Source of the DNA: an uncultured Elusimicrobia bacterium
Lineage (GTDB): Bacteria > Elusimicrobiota > Elusimicrobia > 2-01-FULL-59-12
Direction: 5' to 3'
Assembly: GCA_963702895.1 (NCBI GenBank)
Contig: OY969767.1
Coordinates: 1,152,001 to 1,216,000 of the forward strand
Length of the DNA stretch: 64,000 nucleotides
In this document: positions 4,801-33,967 of the stretch, in pieces
How positions within the stretch are numbered: the first letter of the stretch is position 1
Layout: every line of letters begins with the position of its first letter
The notes under the pieces: generated by a model
The model's database searches: none
Seen by the model: the letters and a program-made list of their open reading frames with translations, nothing else
Told to the model about the DNA's origin: nothing
Made by a program: the position numbers and the translations under genes

Positions 4801-5109
4801 TTAGGCGGCTTTACGGCCTTTGCGAGGGATAATGGCGAGGTCCATGCCAAAAGCACGGAGAATCTGGTGAAGGCTTGCGATTTCCGGATTGCCTTTGTCG
4901 GAGAGAAGGCGATAGAGATGCCCCCGATTCATATGCAGCCGGCGCGAAAGCGCGAGAAGCCCCCCTTGCGCCTCGGCGACATTGCGCAGTGCGATCAGGA
5001 AATGTTTTCTGTCCCCTTCTTCCAGAGCGGCGTTGAGATACGCACAGGCTTCGAGCGGTTCTTTAAGATCTTTGATCAGTTCATCGTGGTAGCTAACACT
5101 CGGTTCCAC
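4801..5109 (-). CDS. Addiction module antidote (HigA-like HTH antitoxin)
   Basis: YLNAALEEGD...ALRNVAEAQGG...LYRLLSDKGNP; GTG 5109 follows AAAGGAG (ATG 5151 is an alternative start). Confidence 0.85.
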   Translation of the reverse strand: MEPSVSYHDELIKDLKEPLEACAYLNAALEEGDRKHFLIALRNVAEAQGGLLALSRRLHMNRGHLYRLLSDKGNPEIASLHQILRAFGMDLAIIPRKGRKAA

Positions 5110-5440
5110 GTATTCTCCTTTGATAGTCTTCCCAGTATGTTTTGGCTTCATCAATGTCCCTTTGTTGTGTACTCTTATCGCCACCGATTAAGAGGATTAT
5201 GAGTGAGAATCCGTCACAGCCAAAATAGATCCTATACCCCGGGCCCCAATTGATTTTAAGTTCTGAAACCCCCTGGCCTATCGGCCGCCAGTATCCCGGA
5301 TTGCCTTCGGAGAATCGCTCAAGCCTATTGCGTAAAACAGACCGAGCTTTACGGTCTCTGAGGCCTCTTAGCCACTCCATGAAAGGCATCCGGCCGCTCG
5401 GAAGTGTATAGGGCCTGAGTTCCTTGGGCCCCTCTAGCAT
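5093..5440 (-). CDS. Type II TA toxin, RelE/ParE superfamily (addiction module killer)
   Basis: PF.EWL..L.D, GVSELKI.WGPGYRIYF, GGDKSTQ.RDI. Confidence 0.9.
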   Translation of the reverse strand: MLEGPKELRPYTLPSGRMPFMEWLRGLRDRKARSVLRNRLERFSEGNPGYWRPIGQGVSELKINWGPGYRIYFGCDGFSLIILLIGGDKSTQQRDIDEAKTYWEDYQRRIRGTEC

Positions 5441-5454
5441 GGCCGGCTCTCAGG

Positions 5455-5483
5455 ATTGTACGGTATAGCGTGCAGATTTTCAA
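5455..5483 (-). promoter_or_regulatory. Sigma70-type promoter of the TA operon with overlapping imperfect palindrome (likely operator)
   Basis: TTGAAA-N17-TACAAT on minus strand; TGTACG-N6-CGTGCA overlaps it. Confidence 0.65.
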
Positions 5484-5495
5484 GGCATGTCCTCA

Positions 5496-5530
5496 TATCC
5501 CTTAGATGCAGAAGGGCGATTCATATTCAC
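5496..5530 (-). promoter_or_regulatory. Bipartite motif GTGAATA-N13-TGCATCTAAGGGATA, copy 1
   Basis: Same half-sites and spacing as copies at 18597-18631 and 33531-33565. Confidence 0.7.
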
Positions 5531-17728: not shown

Positions 17729-18334
17729 CTACTTTTTGGCGAGTGCCTCTCCCACGCGGCCGACGAGGTTTGCCCCGGGTTTGAGCGTCGCCGATCCGGT
17801 TTTCCAATTGGCCGGGCAGGCTTCTTCGGGGTGCTTGGCGAGATAGGCGTTGGCCTGCACCTTGCGCAGAAGCTCATCCGCATTGCGGCCGACGTTGTAG
17901 AAGTTCACTTCGGAATTCACGAGGCGTCCTTCCGGGCTGATGATGAAGCTGCCGCGAAGGGCGAGGCCCGTCGCTTCGTCATAGACGCCAAAGAGGCGCG
18001 ACACGGTGCCTGTCGTATCGGCGCCCATCAGGTAGCGCACGCCGCCCAGGAGCTTTTCCTCGCGCCGCCAGGCGAGGTGCACAAACTTGTTGTCCGTGGA
18101 AACGGAGATGACGGTCGCCCCCGACTTCTGGAGCTGGTCGTGCTTCTCGGCGAGGTCCGCCAATTCCGTCGGGCACACAAACGTGTAGTCCGCAGGATAG
18201 AACACGAGGACCGTCCACTGCCCTTTGGCTTTCAGGTCATCGAGCGAGATCTTTCCAAAATCCGACCGCGCGGGGTCGTAGACATCCAGTTCAAACGATG
18301 GCACGAGTTCTCCGACTTTGACGGAATTCTGCAT
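17729..18334 (-). CDS. ahpC: 2-Cys peroxiredoxin (AhpC/Prx1)
   Basis: FYPADYTFVCPTE and ACPANW. Confidence 0.92.
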   Translation of the reverse strand: MQNSVKVGELVPSFELDVYDPARSDFGKISLDDLKAKGQWTVLVFYPADYTFVCPTELADLAEKHDQLQKSGATVISVSTDNKFVHLAWRREEKLLGGVRYLMGADTTGTVSRLFGVYDEATGLALRGSFIISPEGRLVNSEVNFYNVGRNADELLRKVQANAYLAKHPEEACPANWKTGSATLKPGANLVGRVGEALAKK

Positions 18335-18419
18335 GGGTGCATCCTCCTTGCTGAAGAGGCCAATAGAGCCATCGGCCTAAGGTCGTTATTATAAGCGATT
18401 TTGGACGGGGTTGGTGTTC

Positions 18420-18505
18420 GGTTCAGAGCTGTCAGAAATCGGCTCAGAGTTCAGAGTTTGTCTAGGTCCCTGAGCGCTGAGTTGATTTCTGGCCTTTCTG
18501 AGCTG
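18420..18505. repeat. Degenerate CTCAGAG-type heptamer hairpin upstream of four-helix-bundle gene 1
   Basis: TTCAGAG, GTCAGAA, CTCAGAG, TTCAGAG, then inverted CCCTGAG, CGCTGAG, TTCTGAG. Confidence 0.65.
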
Positions 18506-18596
18506 GCAGCACATCTGGTCCGCGCATCACTCCGCGCTAAGAGATCAAAAATCTTTTGGGATTCTGATCGATCTGTTTGTCCATGGTCAAACAAGA

Positions 18597-18631
18597 GTGA
18601 ATAAAGTATGGGATTTTGCATCTAAGGGATA
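18597..18631 (+). promoter_or_regulatory. Bipartite motif GTGAATA-N13-TGCATCTAAGGGATA, copy 2
   Basis: Ends 27 nt before the ATG of four-helix-bundle gene 1. Confidence 0.75.
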
Positions 18632-18658
18632 GAAGTAACTATTCCACAGGAGGAAGAC

Positions 18659-19069
18659 ATGCAAAACCAAGAGAGGTTTCAGGAGAAGTTTCTCGAATTT
18701 GGGGCAGAAATCGCAACTTTAGTCAGCCAGCTCTCACGAACGACGCCCAGCCGTCAAATCGCCGATCAATTGCTCAGAAGTGGCACTTCGGTAGGGGCCA
18801 ATATTCACGAGGCGCAATCGGCAGAATCGAGGGCTGATTTCATTCATAAACTCCAGATTGGACTGAAGGAAATTCGAGAAACGTCATACTGGCTGGCGAT
18901 TGTTGATAAATCAGGATTGCTCAAAGGCCATTTGCTGGACCATGCTATGAGTCGCTGTCAAGATTTGACGGCAATTCTAGCGAGGTCGGTGATAACGGCT
19001 AAGTCAAAGATTCCAGCTCAGAGACACCAGAACTCGACTCAGAACTCAGAGAGCTATTCAGATCTCTGA
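18659..19069 (+). CDS. Four helix bundle protein (23S rRNA IVP / Avd-like, TIGR02436-type)
   Basis: QLLRSGTSVGANIHEAQSAESRADFIHKLQIGLKEIRETSYWL; AGGAGG RBS. Confidence 0.93.
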   Translation: MQNQERFQEKFLEFGAEIATLVSQLSRTTPSRQIADQLLRSGTSVGANIHEAQSAESRADFIHKLQIGLKEIRETSYWLAIVDKSGLLKGHLLDHAMSRCQDLTAILARSVITAKSKIPAQRHQNSTQNSESYSDL

Positions 19070-19712
19070 GCTCTGAGTTCTGAACTGTTCAAATCTGCCC
19101 GGTACAGGACTCCCCTAAACTGCCCTCAACTCAGAGATCTCAGAACTCAACTCAGAGCTCAGAGCGATAATCAGATCTCTGAGTCCTGAGTTCTGAGCTC
19201 TGAGCTGATCAAATCTGCCCGGTACAGGACTTCCCTAAACTGCCCTCAACTCAGAGATCTCAGAACTCAACTCAGAGCTCAGAGCGATAATCAGATCTCT
19301 GAGTCCTGAGTTCTGAGCTCTGAGCTGATCAAATCTGCCCGGTACAGGACTTCCCTAAACTGCCCTCAACTCAGAGATCTCAGAACTCAACTCAGAGCTC
19401 AGAGCGATAATCAGATCTCTGAGTCCTGAGTTCTGAGCTCTGAGCTGATCAAATCTGCCCGGTACAGGACTTCCCTAAACTGCCCTCAACTCAGAGATCT
19501 CAGAACTCAACTCAGAGCTCAGAGCGATAATCAGATCTCTGAGTCCTGAGTTCTGAGCTCTGAGCTGATCAAATCTGCCCGGTACAGGACTTCCCTAAAC
19601 TGCCCTCAACTCAGAGATCTCAGAACTCAACTCAGAGCTCAGAGCGATAATCAGATCTCTGAGTCCTGAGTTCTGAGCTCTGAGCTGATCAAATCTGCCC
19701 GGTACAGGACTT
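19013..19712. repeat. Tandem array of five 120-bp units (19096-19695) plus one degenerate unit (19013-19095); each full unit carries the 3'-terminal 17 nt of tRNA-Val
   Basis: Sequence repeats with exact 120-nt period; TGCCCGGTACAGGACT(T) starts at 19096, 19216, 19336, 19456, 19576 and 19696 (the tRNA itself). Confidence 0.95.
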
Positions 19713-19769
19713 GAACCTGTGACCCCTTCCATGTCAAGGAAGTACTCTAGCCAGCTGAGCTAACCGGGC
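19696..19769 (-). tRNA. tRNA-Val (GAC), CCA not encoded
   Basis: GCCCGGTTAGCTCAGCTGGCTAGAGTACTTCCTTGACATGGAAGGGGTCACAGGTTCAAGTCCTGTACCGGGCA folds as a cloverleaf. Confidence 0.96.
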
Positions 19770-19963
19770 GTAAATCGTTATAGGTTACTGTCAAGGATTT
19801 TACTTTACTTTTTTGTTTTTTGGTGCCTGTCCCAGCAAGTGTTCTATTTTTTAGATTTGTGACAGGCACCAGTCACCCAAAGCCTTGGCGAAGGCGGAAG
19901 CTCAGCGGACGAAAACGAAAGTGAGCCGATCAATTCCGCAAGAGCCGACAATAGATTAGCAAT

Positions 19964-23687: not shown

Positions 23688-23873
23688 AAGGGATGGAGGG
23701 TTACAAGGAGGAACCGAAGCAAGCCATAGACCCAACGGGCGCTAGATCATCTGTGGGTTGGCGGCCTATCACAAAAGGAACAAAGCTTCCAGAGGGTGAA
23801 GGCGCGCCACTGAGTCGTTGGCGCGTCCGCCTGGCAGTTGTGGCGGAGAACCGAGCGCCAGACACCTGGCGCT

Positions 23874-24021
23874 CGGTCGCCGGTTGTGTGGCGACCGAAC
23901 CCAAAAGGATGGGCCCTACAGCGGGTGAAGGGAATCGTCCGCCAGACGACCGGCGGACGGTCGCCTGTTGTGTGGCGACCGAACCCAAAAGGATGGGCCC
24001 TACAGCGGGTGAAGGGAATCG
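23874..24021. repeat. 64-bp direct repeat (period 84) including the 3'-terminal 18 nt of tRNA-Gly
   Basis: 23874-23937 vs 23958-24021, one mismatch. Confidence 0.88.
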
Positions 24022-24074
24022 AACCCTCGTCTCAACCTTGGCAAGGTCGCATTCTACCATTGAACCACACCCGC
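24004..24074 (-). tRNA. tRNA-Gly (GCC), CCA not encoded
   Basis: GCGGGTGTGGTTCAATGGTAGAATGCGACCTTGCCAAGGTTGAGACGAGGGTTCGATTCCCTTCACCCGCT. Confidence 0.93.
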
Positions 24075-24398
24075 TGTAGGGCCCCTTAAACTCGTCTCAA
24101 CCTTGGCAAGAATACGCCCACCCTTTCGACCTTTATGTGATTTGCTCCGTTTCACGCTTCGATTTTATCACATGGGCCTAAAGTTGTTGGTGAAAGAATT
24201 GGTGAAGATTTCCCCCCGCATCATCGGCCATCTTCTCAGGGAGGGCCTGCTTCACCCCGCGCCATCTTTTTAGAACGGGATGACGCACTGATCGGATAGC
24301 TGATCGGCAAGAGAATAACATGAGTTCTATAAACCGTTTCAGCTCCAATTCAGCATTTATCCAGGCGAATTCATCAAACCTCACGACCAGCACGTTAA

Positions 24399-28237: not shown

Positions 28238-28311
28238 TGGAGCGGGTGATGGGAATCGAACCCACATCTCTACCTTGGCAAGGTAGCATTCTACCACTGA
28301 ACCACACCCGC
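28238..28311 (-). tRNA. tRNA-Gly (GCC) variant with encoded CCA, inside the islet
   Basis: GCGGGTGTGGTTCAGTGGTAGAATGCTACCTTGCCAAGGTAGAGATGTGGGTTCGATTCCCATCACCCGCTCCA. Confidence 0.93.
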
Positions 28312-28427
28312 GAAATTAGTTGGTGAAAAAGTTGGTGAAGATTTTCCCCTTAATTACTAGTCATCTTCCGTAGTGTCGGGCGGCATTTCCCGAGGTGAAC
28401 CGTCATGTTCCGTACTGTTTTCGGATT

Positions 28428-28466
28428 CCTTGGCAAGGTCGCATTCTACCATTGAACCACACCCGC
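28428..28466 (-). pseudogene. 5' half of tRNA-Gly truncated just past the anticodon loop (islet boundary)
   Basis: Identical to 24036-24074; diverges after CCTTGCCAAGG. Confidence 0.85.
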
Positions 28467-28482
28467 TGCAGGGCCCCTTAAA

Positions 28483-28574
28483 CTCGTCTCAACCTTGGCA
28501 AGGTCGCATCCTACCATTCCCGCCACTGAGTCTCTGGCGGGCCCGCCATGGTGTAGTGGCGGGGAACCACACCC
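28483..28574 (-). pseudogene. tRNA-Gly pseudogene with a 45-bp double-hairpin insertion in the D-arm; most of the T-arm missing
   Basis: Removing 28519-28563 restores GGGTGTGGTTC/AATGGTAGGATGCGACCTTGCCAAGGTTGAGACGAG. Confidence 0.8.
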
Positions 28575-28629
28575 ACTGGAGGCCTTCGCATAGACGTTCA
28601 CGATCCTGATCGAGTGGAGAATGGAATTA

Positions 28630-28711
28630 TGCCCAGGACAGGAGTTGAACCTGCAAGCCTTTCGGCATACGCACCTCAAGCGTACGTGTCTGCCAATTCC
28701 ACCACCTGGGC
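28630..28711 (-). tRNA. tRNA-Leu (GAG), CCA not encoded
   Basis: GCCCAGGTGGTGGAATTGGCAGACACGTACGCTTGAGGTGCGTATGCCGAAAGGCTTGCAGGTTCAACTCCTGTCCTGGGCA; long variable arm. Confidence 0.95.
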
Positions 28712-28890
28712 ATAATTCCATTCTCCACAGGCAACCTCATTCAGTCGGGACAATCCCATCTATACCCGCTCGCTTCAAGAGTTTCTAAAGTGGTTGGGAT
28801 CCCAATTCCATCCCCCTAACTCCCGGGGGATAATCCCGCTGCGTAAGCGAGCCATGAAGCAGGACACCACCAGGGCATAAAAGTCAAATT

Positions 28891-28988
28891 AAAGATCAGA
28901 AATCAGAGAGCAGAAATCTAATACACGGACTTTTATCGCGAGATCCACTGCCCTATTTCTGATCTCTGATCTCTGCTTTCTGCTCTGA
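28891..28988. repeat. Inverted heptamer-microsatellite hairpin downstream of tRNA-Cys
   Basis: AGATCAG AAATCAG AGAGCAG AAATC ... TTTCTGA TCTCTGA TCTCTGC TTTCTGC TCTG. Confidence 0.75.
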
Positions 28989-28994
28989 AGTAAT

Positions 28995-29067
28995 AGGTGC
29001 GGGTGGGATTTGAACCCACGAATAACGGTTTTGCAGACCGCCGCGTTAGCCGCTTCGCCACCGCACC
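28995..29067 (-). tRNA. tRNA-Cys (GCA), CCA not encoded
   Basis: GGTGCGGTGGCGAAGCGGCTAACGCGGCGGTCTGCAAAACCGTTATTCGTGGGTTCAAATCCCACCCGCACCT. Confidence 0.93.
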
Positions 29068-29122
29068 AAATTGTGGATTTGATTTTACAAAACGCGTCCC
29101 GGCCCGATGAATCTCCCTGCGC

Positions 29123-32381: not shown

Positions 32382-33131
32382 TCAAAGGTCCCGTGCCAGA
32401 ACAAGCCCAGAAATCGGCCCTATTCCGGCTTTGCGCAGAGTGCTCGCACACGCTTGGAGCGTGCTGGTTGTGGTACAAACGTCGTCGATGAGTAAAAGGG
32501 GCATGCCTTTGAGCCTGGCGCGCAGCGCTTGTGCTACAGGGTCAAGCGCAAAGGCTTCATGGACGTTCGTTTGACGATGGGCCCTGTCCAGAGTGGTCTG
32601 TGAGACGGTCTTCCTCATTTTCTCAAGCAGGCGTAAGACGGGTCGCCCAATGTGACGACCGAGTTCCTGTGCCAAGAGATCAGCCTGATTGAAGCCGCGC
32701 AAGCGTTCTTGCCGCTCAAAGAGTGGGACGGGAACAAGGCCCACCGTGGCGCCTAAGTCGGCATGGCACCGAAAGGCTTGGGATAAAAGTACCCCGAAGG
32801 GAACCGACAGAGACTTCCTTCCTAAATACTTGAAGCGATACATCGCTTTCGCGACCGCTCCCTGATAGACCGTGGCCGCTCGTACCCGTAAGGCGGGAGG
32901 GAACCTCTGACAGACGTAACACCATCTTCCCCCTTCGGGCAGAGGGATCCCACAAGCCTGACAAACGAGACCCTGAATCCGCGGGAGGTTCAGCCAGCAC
33001 GTGCCGCAGAAGCCTTCATCTTCGAGGCACGATAAAGGTGTCCGGCAGCCGGCGCAAGCCCACGGCAAGAAGAATCTTAAGAGATGAGAAGCAAGAAACG
33101 AGAGCTGAGAGACAGCTCTTCGACCTCTCAT
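32382..33131 (-). CDS. comF: ComF-family double zinc ribbon / phosphoribosyltransferase protein
   Basis: Four CxxC pairs, PVPL, RGFNQA, LLIDDVCTT; ATG 33131 overlaps the upstream stop (ATGA). Confidence 0.85.
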   Translation of the reverse strand: MRGRRAVSQLSFLASHLLRFFLPWACAGCRTPLSCLEDEGFCGTCWLNLPRIQGLVCQACGIPLPEGGRWCYVCQRFPPALRVRAATVYQGAVAKAMYRFKYLGRKSLSVPFGVLLSQAFRCHADLGATVGLVPVPLFERQERLRGFNQADLLAQELGRHIGRPVLRLLEKMRKTVSQTTLDRAHRQTNVHEAFALDPVAQALRARLKGMPLLLIDDVCTTTSTLQACASTLRKAGIGPISGLVLARDL

Positions 33132-33523
33132 GTCGGTTGCTTCTTTTCGCGTTTGGCGTTTGCTTGTGCTGTGCGAACGGAGGCTACTAGGATGGCGGTT
33201 AATTCGCTGCACTCTCGTCGTAGCGCTTCCAAACCGGGTTCTTGGACGAGAGCAGACTCCATAATCAATGCGAGCCAATAGCCGGACTCCCGCATTTCTT
33301 TGAGCGCGATATGCATTTTGTGAATAAAATCTGCGCGTGACTCTGCAGAGCGTGCTTCTTGGGCATTTGCACCACACGATGTCGCGGAGCGCGAGAGTTG
33401 CTCAGCGATTGACTTTAGATCGGAGATTTGTCGCAAGGCAGAAGTGAGGCGTAAGATGGCGACACCAAAGTCTAGGCAACGTTCATGAAATCTCTTCTTG
33501 TTAGTTGGCGATACGTTCATCAT
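33128..33523 (-). CDS. Four helix bundle protein (23S rRNA IVP / Avd-like, TIGR02436-type)
   Basis: QLSRSATSCGANAQEARSAESRADFIHKMHIALKEMRESGYWL. Confidence 0.93.
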   Translation of the reverse strand: MMNVSPTNKKRFHERCLDFGVAILRLTSALRQISDLKSIAEQLSRSATSCGANAQEARSAESRADFIHKMHIALKEMRESGYWLALIMESALVQEPGLEALRRECSELTAILVASVRTAQANAKREKKQPT

Positions 33524-33530
33524 GGACTTC

Positions 33531-33565
33531 TATCCCTTAGATGCAAATCCACGCACTTTATTCAC
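33531..33565 (-). promoter_or_regulatory. Bipartite motif GTGAATA-N13-TGCATCTAAGGGATA, copy 3
   Basis: Ends 7 nt before the ATG of four-helix-bundle gene 2. Confidence 0.75.
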
Positions 33566-33596
33566 TTTATCGTCGGAGAGACTCGAATCCTGGTGA

Positions 33597-33967
33597 AGAG
33601 CGATAGCAGAGAAACAAGAGTAGAGAAATGAGAAGCGAGAGCAAAGAAGCGAAAGCAGAGAAGCGAGAGCAGAGAAGCGAGAGCTGAGAAGCGAGAGCTG
33701 AGAAACGAGAGCTGAGAGGCGAGAGCAGAGAAACGAGAGCTGAGAAACGAGAGCAGAGAAGCGAGAGCAAAGAAAGCAGAGTGGACACACGTCATTGTCT
33801 CTTAACTCGCTTGTCGAGCGAGCCGCTGTCGTCTCTCGTTTCTCTGCTCTCGTTTCTCGCTTCTCGAGCGAGCCGCTGTCGTCTCTCGTTTCTCTGCTCT
33901 CGTTTCTCGCTTGTCGAGCGAGCCGCTGTCGTCTCTCGTTTCTCTGCTCTCGTTTCTCGCTTCTCGT
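33597..33967. repeat. Large heptamer microsatellite hairpin; the right arm is a 50-bp tandem repeat (3 copies plus a partial)
   Basis: GAGAAGC/GAGAGCA/GAGAAAC run at 33597-33781; complementary units start at 33806, 33856, 33906 and 33956. Confidence 0.92.

Follow-up and report, generated by a model that had tools for sequence, protein, structure and literature searches.

Repeats that contain the 3' end of the tRNA are located downstream of the tyrT gene of Escherichia coli, and competence regulons are known that are placed under an alternative sigma factor of the ComX/SigH type. Other described systems close to the locus treated here are the intervening sequences (IVS) of 23S rRNA that bear an open reading frame (ORF) of the S23p family (PMC4990558; PDB 2rld), the islands targeted to tRNA genes, with their tandem arrays (Islander, PMC4383910), the diversity-generating retroelements (DGRs) with their protein Avd, a four-helix bundle that forms a pentameric, RNA-binding barrel (PMC6182149; PDB 4dwl), and the Ssn-type GIY-YIG enzymes, which cut hairpins in single-stranded DNA (ssDNA) during natural transformation (PMC11893778). 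Multicopy heptanucleotide elements of unknown function have been described (PMC2700814), and rttR is mentioned in bioRxiv 10.1101/2024.07.17.603846. This work concerns a locus in a 64,000-nucleotide stretch of DNA from an uncultured Elusimicrobia bacterium (contig OY969767.1; the whole stretch is hereafter called the window), in which a four-helix-bundle gene is separated from the 3' end of a convergent tRNA-Val(GAC) gene by an array of 120-bp units.

A cassette composed of a hairpin, a promoter-like motif, the gene and a second hairpin faces the 3' end of tRNA-Val, and we consider it probable that the five identical units are a recent by-product of DNA joining in the T-loop followed by multiplication, not a conserved RNA array. 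That the array is a recent by-product, whether by T-loop joining or by ordinary duplication, we state with considerable confidence. The genome is one 2.72-Mb contig and 98% complete, and the cassette is placed in it between a peroxiredoxin gene and tRNA-Val. The comparison uses L236, the one locus that turned up when metagenome contigs were searched with the tRNA tail and trailer; it holds an ortholog of the gene. All parts named in a preliminary description of this DNA (the upstream hairpin, the motif, the plus-strand gene, the 120-bp array and the convergent tRNA-Val(GAC)) were found again. In window positions, the features are as follows.

About 18420..18506, plus strand: upstream heptamer hairpin; a homologous hairpin is also present upstream of the L236 ortholog.
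18597..18630, plus strand: bipartite promoter-like motif GAATAW-N16-TCTA, common to recA, comEC, comF and yraN-comM-dprA.
18659..19069, plus strand: four-helix-bundle gene (136 aa; TIGR02436 / PF05635), the last 18 residues of which read through the hairpin and are missing in the ortholog.
19013..19088, minus strand: distal (resident) heptamer hairpin, overlapping the 3' end of the gene.
19089..19112, minus strand: most distal tRNA-tail copy, positions 57-73 with G57, plus the 7-nt trailer.
19113..19712, minus strand: five identical 120-bp units, each leading from tRNA positions 57-73 (A57) and the 7-nt trailer through a heptamer hairpin to a 13-nt spacer.
19113..19125, minus strand: 13-nt spacer, one per unit, with a 7-nt exact match to the end of the L236 gene.
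19696..19769, minus strand: tRNA-Val(GAC) with A57 and no encoded CCA, convergent with the gene.

Tandem Repeats Finder reported a period of 120 with 5.4 copies and 99% matches at 19066-19712. In tRNA orientation the units are located at 19593-19712, 19473-19592, 19353-19472, 19233-19352 and 19113-19232 and are 100% identical, which suggests that the array is probably very recent. Each of the five starts, as had been described, with the last 17 nt of the tRNA (positions 57-73), followed by the 7-nt trailer; in the first unit these 17 nt are the tRNA's own end, and 24-nt direct repeats flank every unit. The ability of the unit to fold as a hairpin was likewise confirmed (-53.8 kcal/mol, z = -4.0, none of 200 shuffles being equally good). 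The most distal copy (about 19013-19112) is indeed degenerate and overlaps the last codons of the gene, encoding the C-terminus of the protein: it matches the unit in 85 of 100 aligned columns, plus one 7-nt gap by which one heptamer is lost. Its tRNA-derived 24 nt differ from the unit at one base, the remainder at 14 of 76. The divergence had been described as polarized away from the tRNA. No gradient was observed: the five units do not differ among themselves, and beyond them come a single junction base and one copy that has diverged; the polarity itself stands, as the distal tRNA copy has the G57 of relatives.

This junction base is the single-nucleotide polymorphism (SNP) reported earlier at 19112. 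It is real, and it falls not inside a hairpin but on position 57, where the distal tRNA copy begins; this base is G, while the tRNA and the four inner copies have A. Among 19 tRNA-Val(GAC) loci examined, the eight from relatives with the same T-arm, L236 included, all have G57; the remainder have other T-arms, four of them with A57. Since the distal copy carries the base of the relatives, it is likely to be the displaced original end of the tRNA, and the proposal that units were added on the tRNA-proximal side is thereby backed. The homology of the repeats begins at position 58, and all four inner junctions have A57. A crossover between an A57 and a G57 copy in the shared 58-80 would leave G57 inside the array, yet all inner copies have A, so either joining took place precisely at 56|57 at least once, or there was a single point mutation. 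The pattern at position 57 favours precise T-loop joining over ordinary crossover.

In such a course of events, a fragment reaching from position 57 through the hairpin to the last codons, and carrying A57, would have been joined into the resident tRNA gene between C56 and G57, whereby the old tRNA end would be pushed downstream. The A57 fragment may have derived from the allele of a related strain and have been taken up as ssDNA. It may have entered as a concatemer of a 120-nt circle, or by one re-join at the same point and subsequent unequal crossover. An ordinary local event would need no special joining: an old duplication of tail plus hairpin would have been expanded by unequal crossover or hairpin-aided slippage, and 19112 would be a later point mutation. 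The 24-nt direct repeats that bound each unit fit this explanation, as does the SNP, which extends a G run; moreover, four other four-helix genes of this genome have arms with longer tandem duplications without tRNA sequence (units of 103, 111, 50 and 38 bp). However, it requires G57A in the tRNA together with a back-change, in exactly the distal copy, to the base of the relatives. The uneven distribution of differences between the distal copy and the unit (one in the tRNA-derived part, 14 in the rest) also speaks against it, and the common T-loop start of tail copies in this genome, given below, is left unexplained. We regard local duplication as unlikely.

The state without an array is represented by L236. 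Its tRNA-Val is identical at 71 of 74 bases and is followed by the same trailer, one hairpin and the convergent ortholog, whose protein shares 94 of 118 residues. The ortholog also has the motif, with a 17-nt spacer, and a hairpin copy upstream. There is no array and no tail copy at L236, and the protein ends at K-S-K-L ahead of the hairpin. The array is the derived state, and because the L236 protein stops before the hairpin, the repeat-encoded C-terminal tail is not conserved. In the tRNA-side segment 40 of 41 non-tRNA bases are the same as in L236, versus 17 of 40 four-fold sites in the gene, which points to some constraint on (or homogenisation of) the single hairpin, on the arm directly behind the tRNA.

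When the tRNA-side arm is compared with L236, the unit agrees at 56 of 57 bases and the resident copy has 46 matches, four mismatches and a 7-nt gap. The 13-nt spacer reads K-L-P where the resident gene reads K-I-P, and it probably derives from the final codons of a different four-helix allele, with seven exact bases in common with the gene end of L236 (chance 0.5-0.9%, tested post hoc). No exact copy of the spacer was found outside the array in the genome, and a dispersed element was accordingly rejected. Taken with the arm and the spacer match, the contrast between one difference in 24 nt and 14 in 76 makes the unit look more like a different allele than like a decayed copy. A solo hairpin, with the unit as a recombinant of the upstream and downstream hairpins after gene loss, found no support: the gene-side arm agrees with the upstream hairpin of L236 at 28 of 36 bases, with the downstream one at 27 of 36 and with the resident copy at 30 of 36.

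The preliminary description had envisaged a module of protein and repeat RNA, in which read-through from tRNA-Val could yield RNAs of about 120 nt with tRNA-like 3' ends and could run antisense into the gene. In its fuller form, the transcript would be cut, as in E. coli rtT, into hairpin RNAs that either bind the protein or have an antisense effect on its gene. A scan of 18300-19950 for sigma-70 promoters and terminators, whose hits were at chance level, revealed no intrinsic terminator on the tRNA strand, so read-through into the hairpin is plausible. The stable fold of the unit and the strong conservation of the tRNA-side arm would also fit such an RNA, and Avd of DGRs binds a defined RNA site (PMC6182149). 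However, both tRNA stems, acceptor and T, are without their 5' strands in the units, and for this reason tRNA-like processing of each unit, including CCA-tailed unit RNAs, is unlikely. No Rfam family besides the tRNA scored above cut-off, the other matches being chance hairpin matches. The identity of the five units indicates a very recent origin, and neither the L236 ortholog nor any of 101 other family loci, surveyed below, has an array. A functional repeat RNA is improbable, and a conserved module is not supported, as tail copies are also present at 16 further tRNAs. The lone hairpin that follows tRNA-Val is likely to serve as a shared 3' structure for two convergent transcripts.

The gene itself belongs to the family that had been suggested: ORF 18659-19069(+) scores 84.1 bits against TIGR02436 (cut-off 24) and 67.8 bits against PF05635 (cut-off 33.8), both above the curated cut-offs, and the protein matches 2rld with an E value of 3.9e-18, which makes it an S23p family member. 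It is framed by complementary arms, the inner arm of the upstream hairpin being 80% complementary over 44 nt to the downstream arm at a distance of 506 nt. In a fold search with a single-sequence model (pLDDT 64.8), Avd (4dwl) was a weak match at rank 20 (E 0.58, TM 0.44), below unrelated bundles. The protein probably binds the heptamer arms.

An association of TIGR02436 genes with tRNA-3'-end arrays was sought at 51 loci of relatives (51 of the 56 matches outside this genome, the five others being weak or partial) and at 50 distant loci. The tRNA-tail array was present at 0 of 51 and 0 of 50, respectively, so the association is not conserved. A tRNA gene is located within 700 nt at 6 of the 51 loci, in two cases convergent at the tRNA 3' end, and in the flank of 2 of the 50. 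In this genome, three of the ten four-helix genes run towards a tRNA 3' end (Val and His) or a Met remnant, and the same hairpin alone, without gene or tail copy, stands behind tRNA-Met in genome G003 and behind tRNA-Pro in G009. The cassette at a tRNA end thus recurs without being the rule, and the combination of gene and array was found here only.

Several further arrangements of four-helix genes and tRNA genes were observed. At G000:C1:354185-354440, a four-helix gene with a 103-bp hairpin duplication (x2.1) faces a tRNA-Met 3' remnant, and in G007 the gene faces an intact tRNA-Met. A second four-helix gene of the window (33128-33966 / 32382-33377), with its own heptamer word and a 50-bp arm duplication (x3.2), lies between the motif and comF; G001 has a different four-helix gene in this place. 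Upstream of thrS, tRNA-Val(GAC) is located directly ahead of the gene in six of nine family genomes fetched, and the other three flanks are without tRNA. In the window the spacer between tRNA-Val and thrS is filled by the cassette and an AhpC-like peroxiredoxin gene (17729-18334), and it is short in six of nine family genomes examined. An independent, co-directional four-helix cassette with another heptamer word lies between tRNA-Val(GAC) and thrS at L129 (G023:C100:46300-48000). At L130 (G035:C1:1561300-1564600), two unrelated multi-hairpin units follow tRNA-Val(GAC), each ending in a weak, 7-8 nt match to T-loop and T-stem.

Duplication of tRNA tails is common in this genome. A downstream copy of the 3' end was detected within 800 nt for 17 of 48 tRNA calls (one of them spurious, without a T-loop), and upstream for none. 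The copies start at T-loop positions 55-58 in 27 of 30 cases, and most of them carry another, twin-hairpin repeat. At the 16 other tRNAs, no four-helix gene follows the tail duplication except through separate sites. Within the window, tRNA-Gly(GCC) at 23856-24075 is followed by two 84-bp units that repeat its own tail and have a twin-hairpin insertion within the T-loop; they belong to the same family as a tRNA-Gln array (x6) elsewhere in the genome. The tRNA-Cys/Leu/Gly cluster at 28300-29070 has a heptamer hairpin behind tRNA-Cys and several broken 5' halves of tRNA-Gly between tRNA-Leu and tRNA-Gly.

These tail copies also bear on whether each unit is a minimal island or remnant at an attachment (att) site in the tRNA T-stem, made by a tyrosine integrase in trans. 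A restored tRNA with displaced 3' fragments is the signature of islands (PMC4383910), and two of the four tyrosine recombinase/integrase matches in the genome are non-Xer-looking, the other two appearing to be Xer by position. However, all four matches are far from the locus, the units are only 120 bp long and homologous to the resident hairpin over their full length, and 17 different tRNAs with the same T-loop start would be too many targets for two integrases. We consider this origin very improbable. We assign even less probability to a copy number inflated by assembly, with a true state of one or two units. The complete identity of the units would allow it, as no array-spanning read was at hand; however, the single contig suggests long reads, other multi-copy tail arrays of this genome have internal SNPs, and a short-read contig of 143 nt crosses a unit junction without differences (it is uninformative on copy number and may share the sample of the window).

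The promoter-like motif had been described as a conserved upstream motif. Its presence at 18597-18630 was confirmed; it is not specific to the gene, being promoter-like, family-specific and distributed genome-wide. It occurs at 38 sites in the genome, which rules out that it is specific to four-helix genes, and the spacer from GAATA to CATCTA is 15 nt in 34 of 39 cases. A profile search yielded 37 sites, versus 0-1 in two shuffles. The motif is non-palindromic and points towards start codons. Its strict form was found in 7 of 11 genomes of the family, whereas all 30 others lack it; in relaxed form it was detected upstream of recA in 8 of 10 family genomes (those with the 5' end, two fragment rows being left out and G003, with a flank of 103 nt, counted), of comEC in 6 of 10, of comF in 9 of 11 and of yraN in 5 of 11, and upstream of the control gene thrS in 0 of 9. 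It precedes 7 of the 10 four-helix genes of this genome; for the family the figure is 24 of 35, of which 8 are exact and 16 have at most two mismatches, versus 0 of 16 outside the family. Its 9-nt core is missing at all 50 distant four-helix loci. These counts are descriptive, related genomes not being independent.

RpoE-type promoters have a GAA-N16-TCTA spacing that resembles the motif's. A sigma-54 site, an integron core and a palindromic operator were ruled out by spacing and lack of symmetry with respect to their known consensus sequences. Eight sigma-factor candidates (single matches) lie above cut-off, none of them singled out for the motif. The ORFs scanned downstream (20 of about 37) encode, among others, RecA, ComEC, UPF0102 (YraN), four YhcG, ORF6N, BrnT, Phd, PIN, Gp49 and a Y1 fragment, and four are without match; behind yraN lie genes that are comM-, dprA-, topA- and xer-like (named by inspection, except dprA). 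The motif is likely to be the alternative-sigma promoter of a competence and recombination regulon that has also been acquired by many small accessory genes, and the four-helix gene would then be transcribed together with the competence and recombination genes.

Further copies of the motif stand ahead of other small genes. At about 5093-5530 of the window (G000:C1:1157093-1157530) one precedes a RelE/HigB-like ORF, and at the relatives' loci L103, L117, L101, L106 and L113 the motif stands ahead of Flp-pilin-like, secretin-like and full-length Y1/RAYT-like ORFs (families named by inspection). Three tandem YhcG/DUF1016 genes at G000:C1:2035265-2039540, two of them shortened, each have their own motif.

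A reverse transcriptase (RT) or integrase acting in trans had been suggested as worth a search in the genome. Matches of both kinds exist, namely the four tyrosine recombinases and three RT matches, all in 507-aa frames, of which the one scanned is a group II intron maturase; none of the RT matches is at the locus, and a DGR RT is absent there. Nine GIY-YIG matches were found, none at the locus and five beside tRNA genes or stubs. Because Ssn-type enzymes cut hairpin ssDNA in transformation, the small tRNA-linked, Ssn-like GIY-YIG nucleases are the best candidates for a cutter in trans, and an HUH (Y1) enzyme is also a candidate. A bolder version of T-loop joining can be formulated, to which we give limited credence. 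Heptamer-armed four-helix cassettes would be selfish passengers of natural transformation: under a host competence promoter, the protein would be made on entry of ssDNA, bind the hairpins and help joining at fixed nicks (tRNA T-loop 56|57), and the array would be a 120-nt fragment of a foreign allele inserted as a five-mer.

Several observations count against T-loop joining and its link to competence. The argument from position 57 concerns a single base that adjoins a G run; most tRNAs have a purine there, and one point mutation would undo the argument. The spacer match comprises only 7 nt and was tested post hoc, and in the gene-side arm the similarity to L236 is not greater for the unit (27 of 36 bases) than for the resident copy (29 of 36). 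There is one orthologous locus only; arm-pattern and protein searches of 401 genomes of the phylum added none. The locus holds no nuclease or recombinase gene, and the sole match to Y1 that the genome contains is fragmentary. No motif lies within 1.5 kb of dprA in any of 11 genomes; here this gene is the third behind yraN. Finally, some room is left for a role as RNA, given that the tRNA-side arm is strongly conserved and the hairpin thus constrained.

Taken alone, the array is probably no more than ordinary debris, and the link between four-helix cassettes and a likely competence promoter is the more valuable result. Integrase-free duplication of tRNA tails touches a third of the tRNAs of this genome, and here a one-base mark may show the joining point. 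The motif is the first regulatory handle found on TIGR02436, a very common family of unknown function, and from it a candidate competence regulon can be proposed for a lineage that is uncultured; the promoter link would make the role of the family and of the heptamer hairpins addressable on ssDNA during competence. A literature search, mostly of non-subscription texts, yielded no account of heptamer-armed TIGR02436 cassettes, of the motif or of integrase-free T-loop arrays. The terms 'tRNA' and 'four helix' occur zero times in the main text of PMC11893778, as do 'four helix bundle' and 'S23' in the available part of PMC4679880. The cassette can nevertheless be placed among the described systems.

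With tyrT/rtT of E. coli, the locus shares tandem units behind a tRNA gene, each with the tRNA 3' end; here the units are identical, contain a heptamer hairpin, lack a terminator and are missing in the ortholog. As in competence regulons of the ComX/SigH type, one oriented, non-palindromic motif heads recA, comEC, comF and yraN-comM-dprA, whereas its consensus differs and numerous toxin-antitoxin, YhcG, ORF6N, Y1 and four-helix genes stand behind it as well. The ORF-bearing 23S rRNA IVS (PMC4990558; PDB 2rld) have a gene of the same family within complementary arms, but the present gene is located outside rRNA, with heptamer-hairpin arms and its own promoter-like motif, and faces a tRNA 3' end. 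Islands targeted to tRNA genes (PMC4383910) likewise restore the tRNA and displace 3' fragments in the same orientation downstream, here five, which start in the T-loop region. In contrast to them, no integrase lies between tRNA and fragment, the units are non-coding and 120 bp long instead of at least 2 kb, and the cargo is a copy of the resident hairpin. The Ssn nucleases with their NTS/SRM hairpin repeats (PMC11893778) also represent a small gene linked to hairpin repeats, and they act on ssDNA in natural transformation, the setting to which the motif here points; the present protein is a four-helix bundle without a known catalytic site, and the GIY-YIG genes are elsewhere in the genome. 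Avd is a four-helix bundle too, and it is pentameric, while the 2rld entry has five chains, but there is no sequence match and neither a DGR RT nor a template or variable repeat at the locus. Unique spacers between repeats, a CRISPR-like trait, are absent, as all five units are identical. Judged by the features tested, the locus is neither an rRNA IVS nor a DGR, and it is no integrase island or CRISPR-like array either; what it resembles most is a hairpin cassette related to the IVS, combined with a duplication of the tRNA tail such as islands or rtT show.

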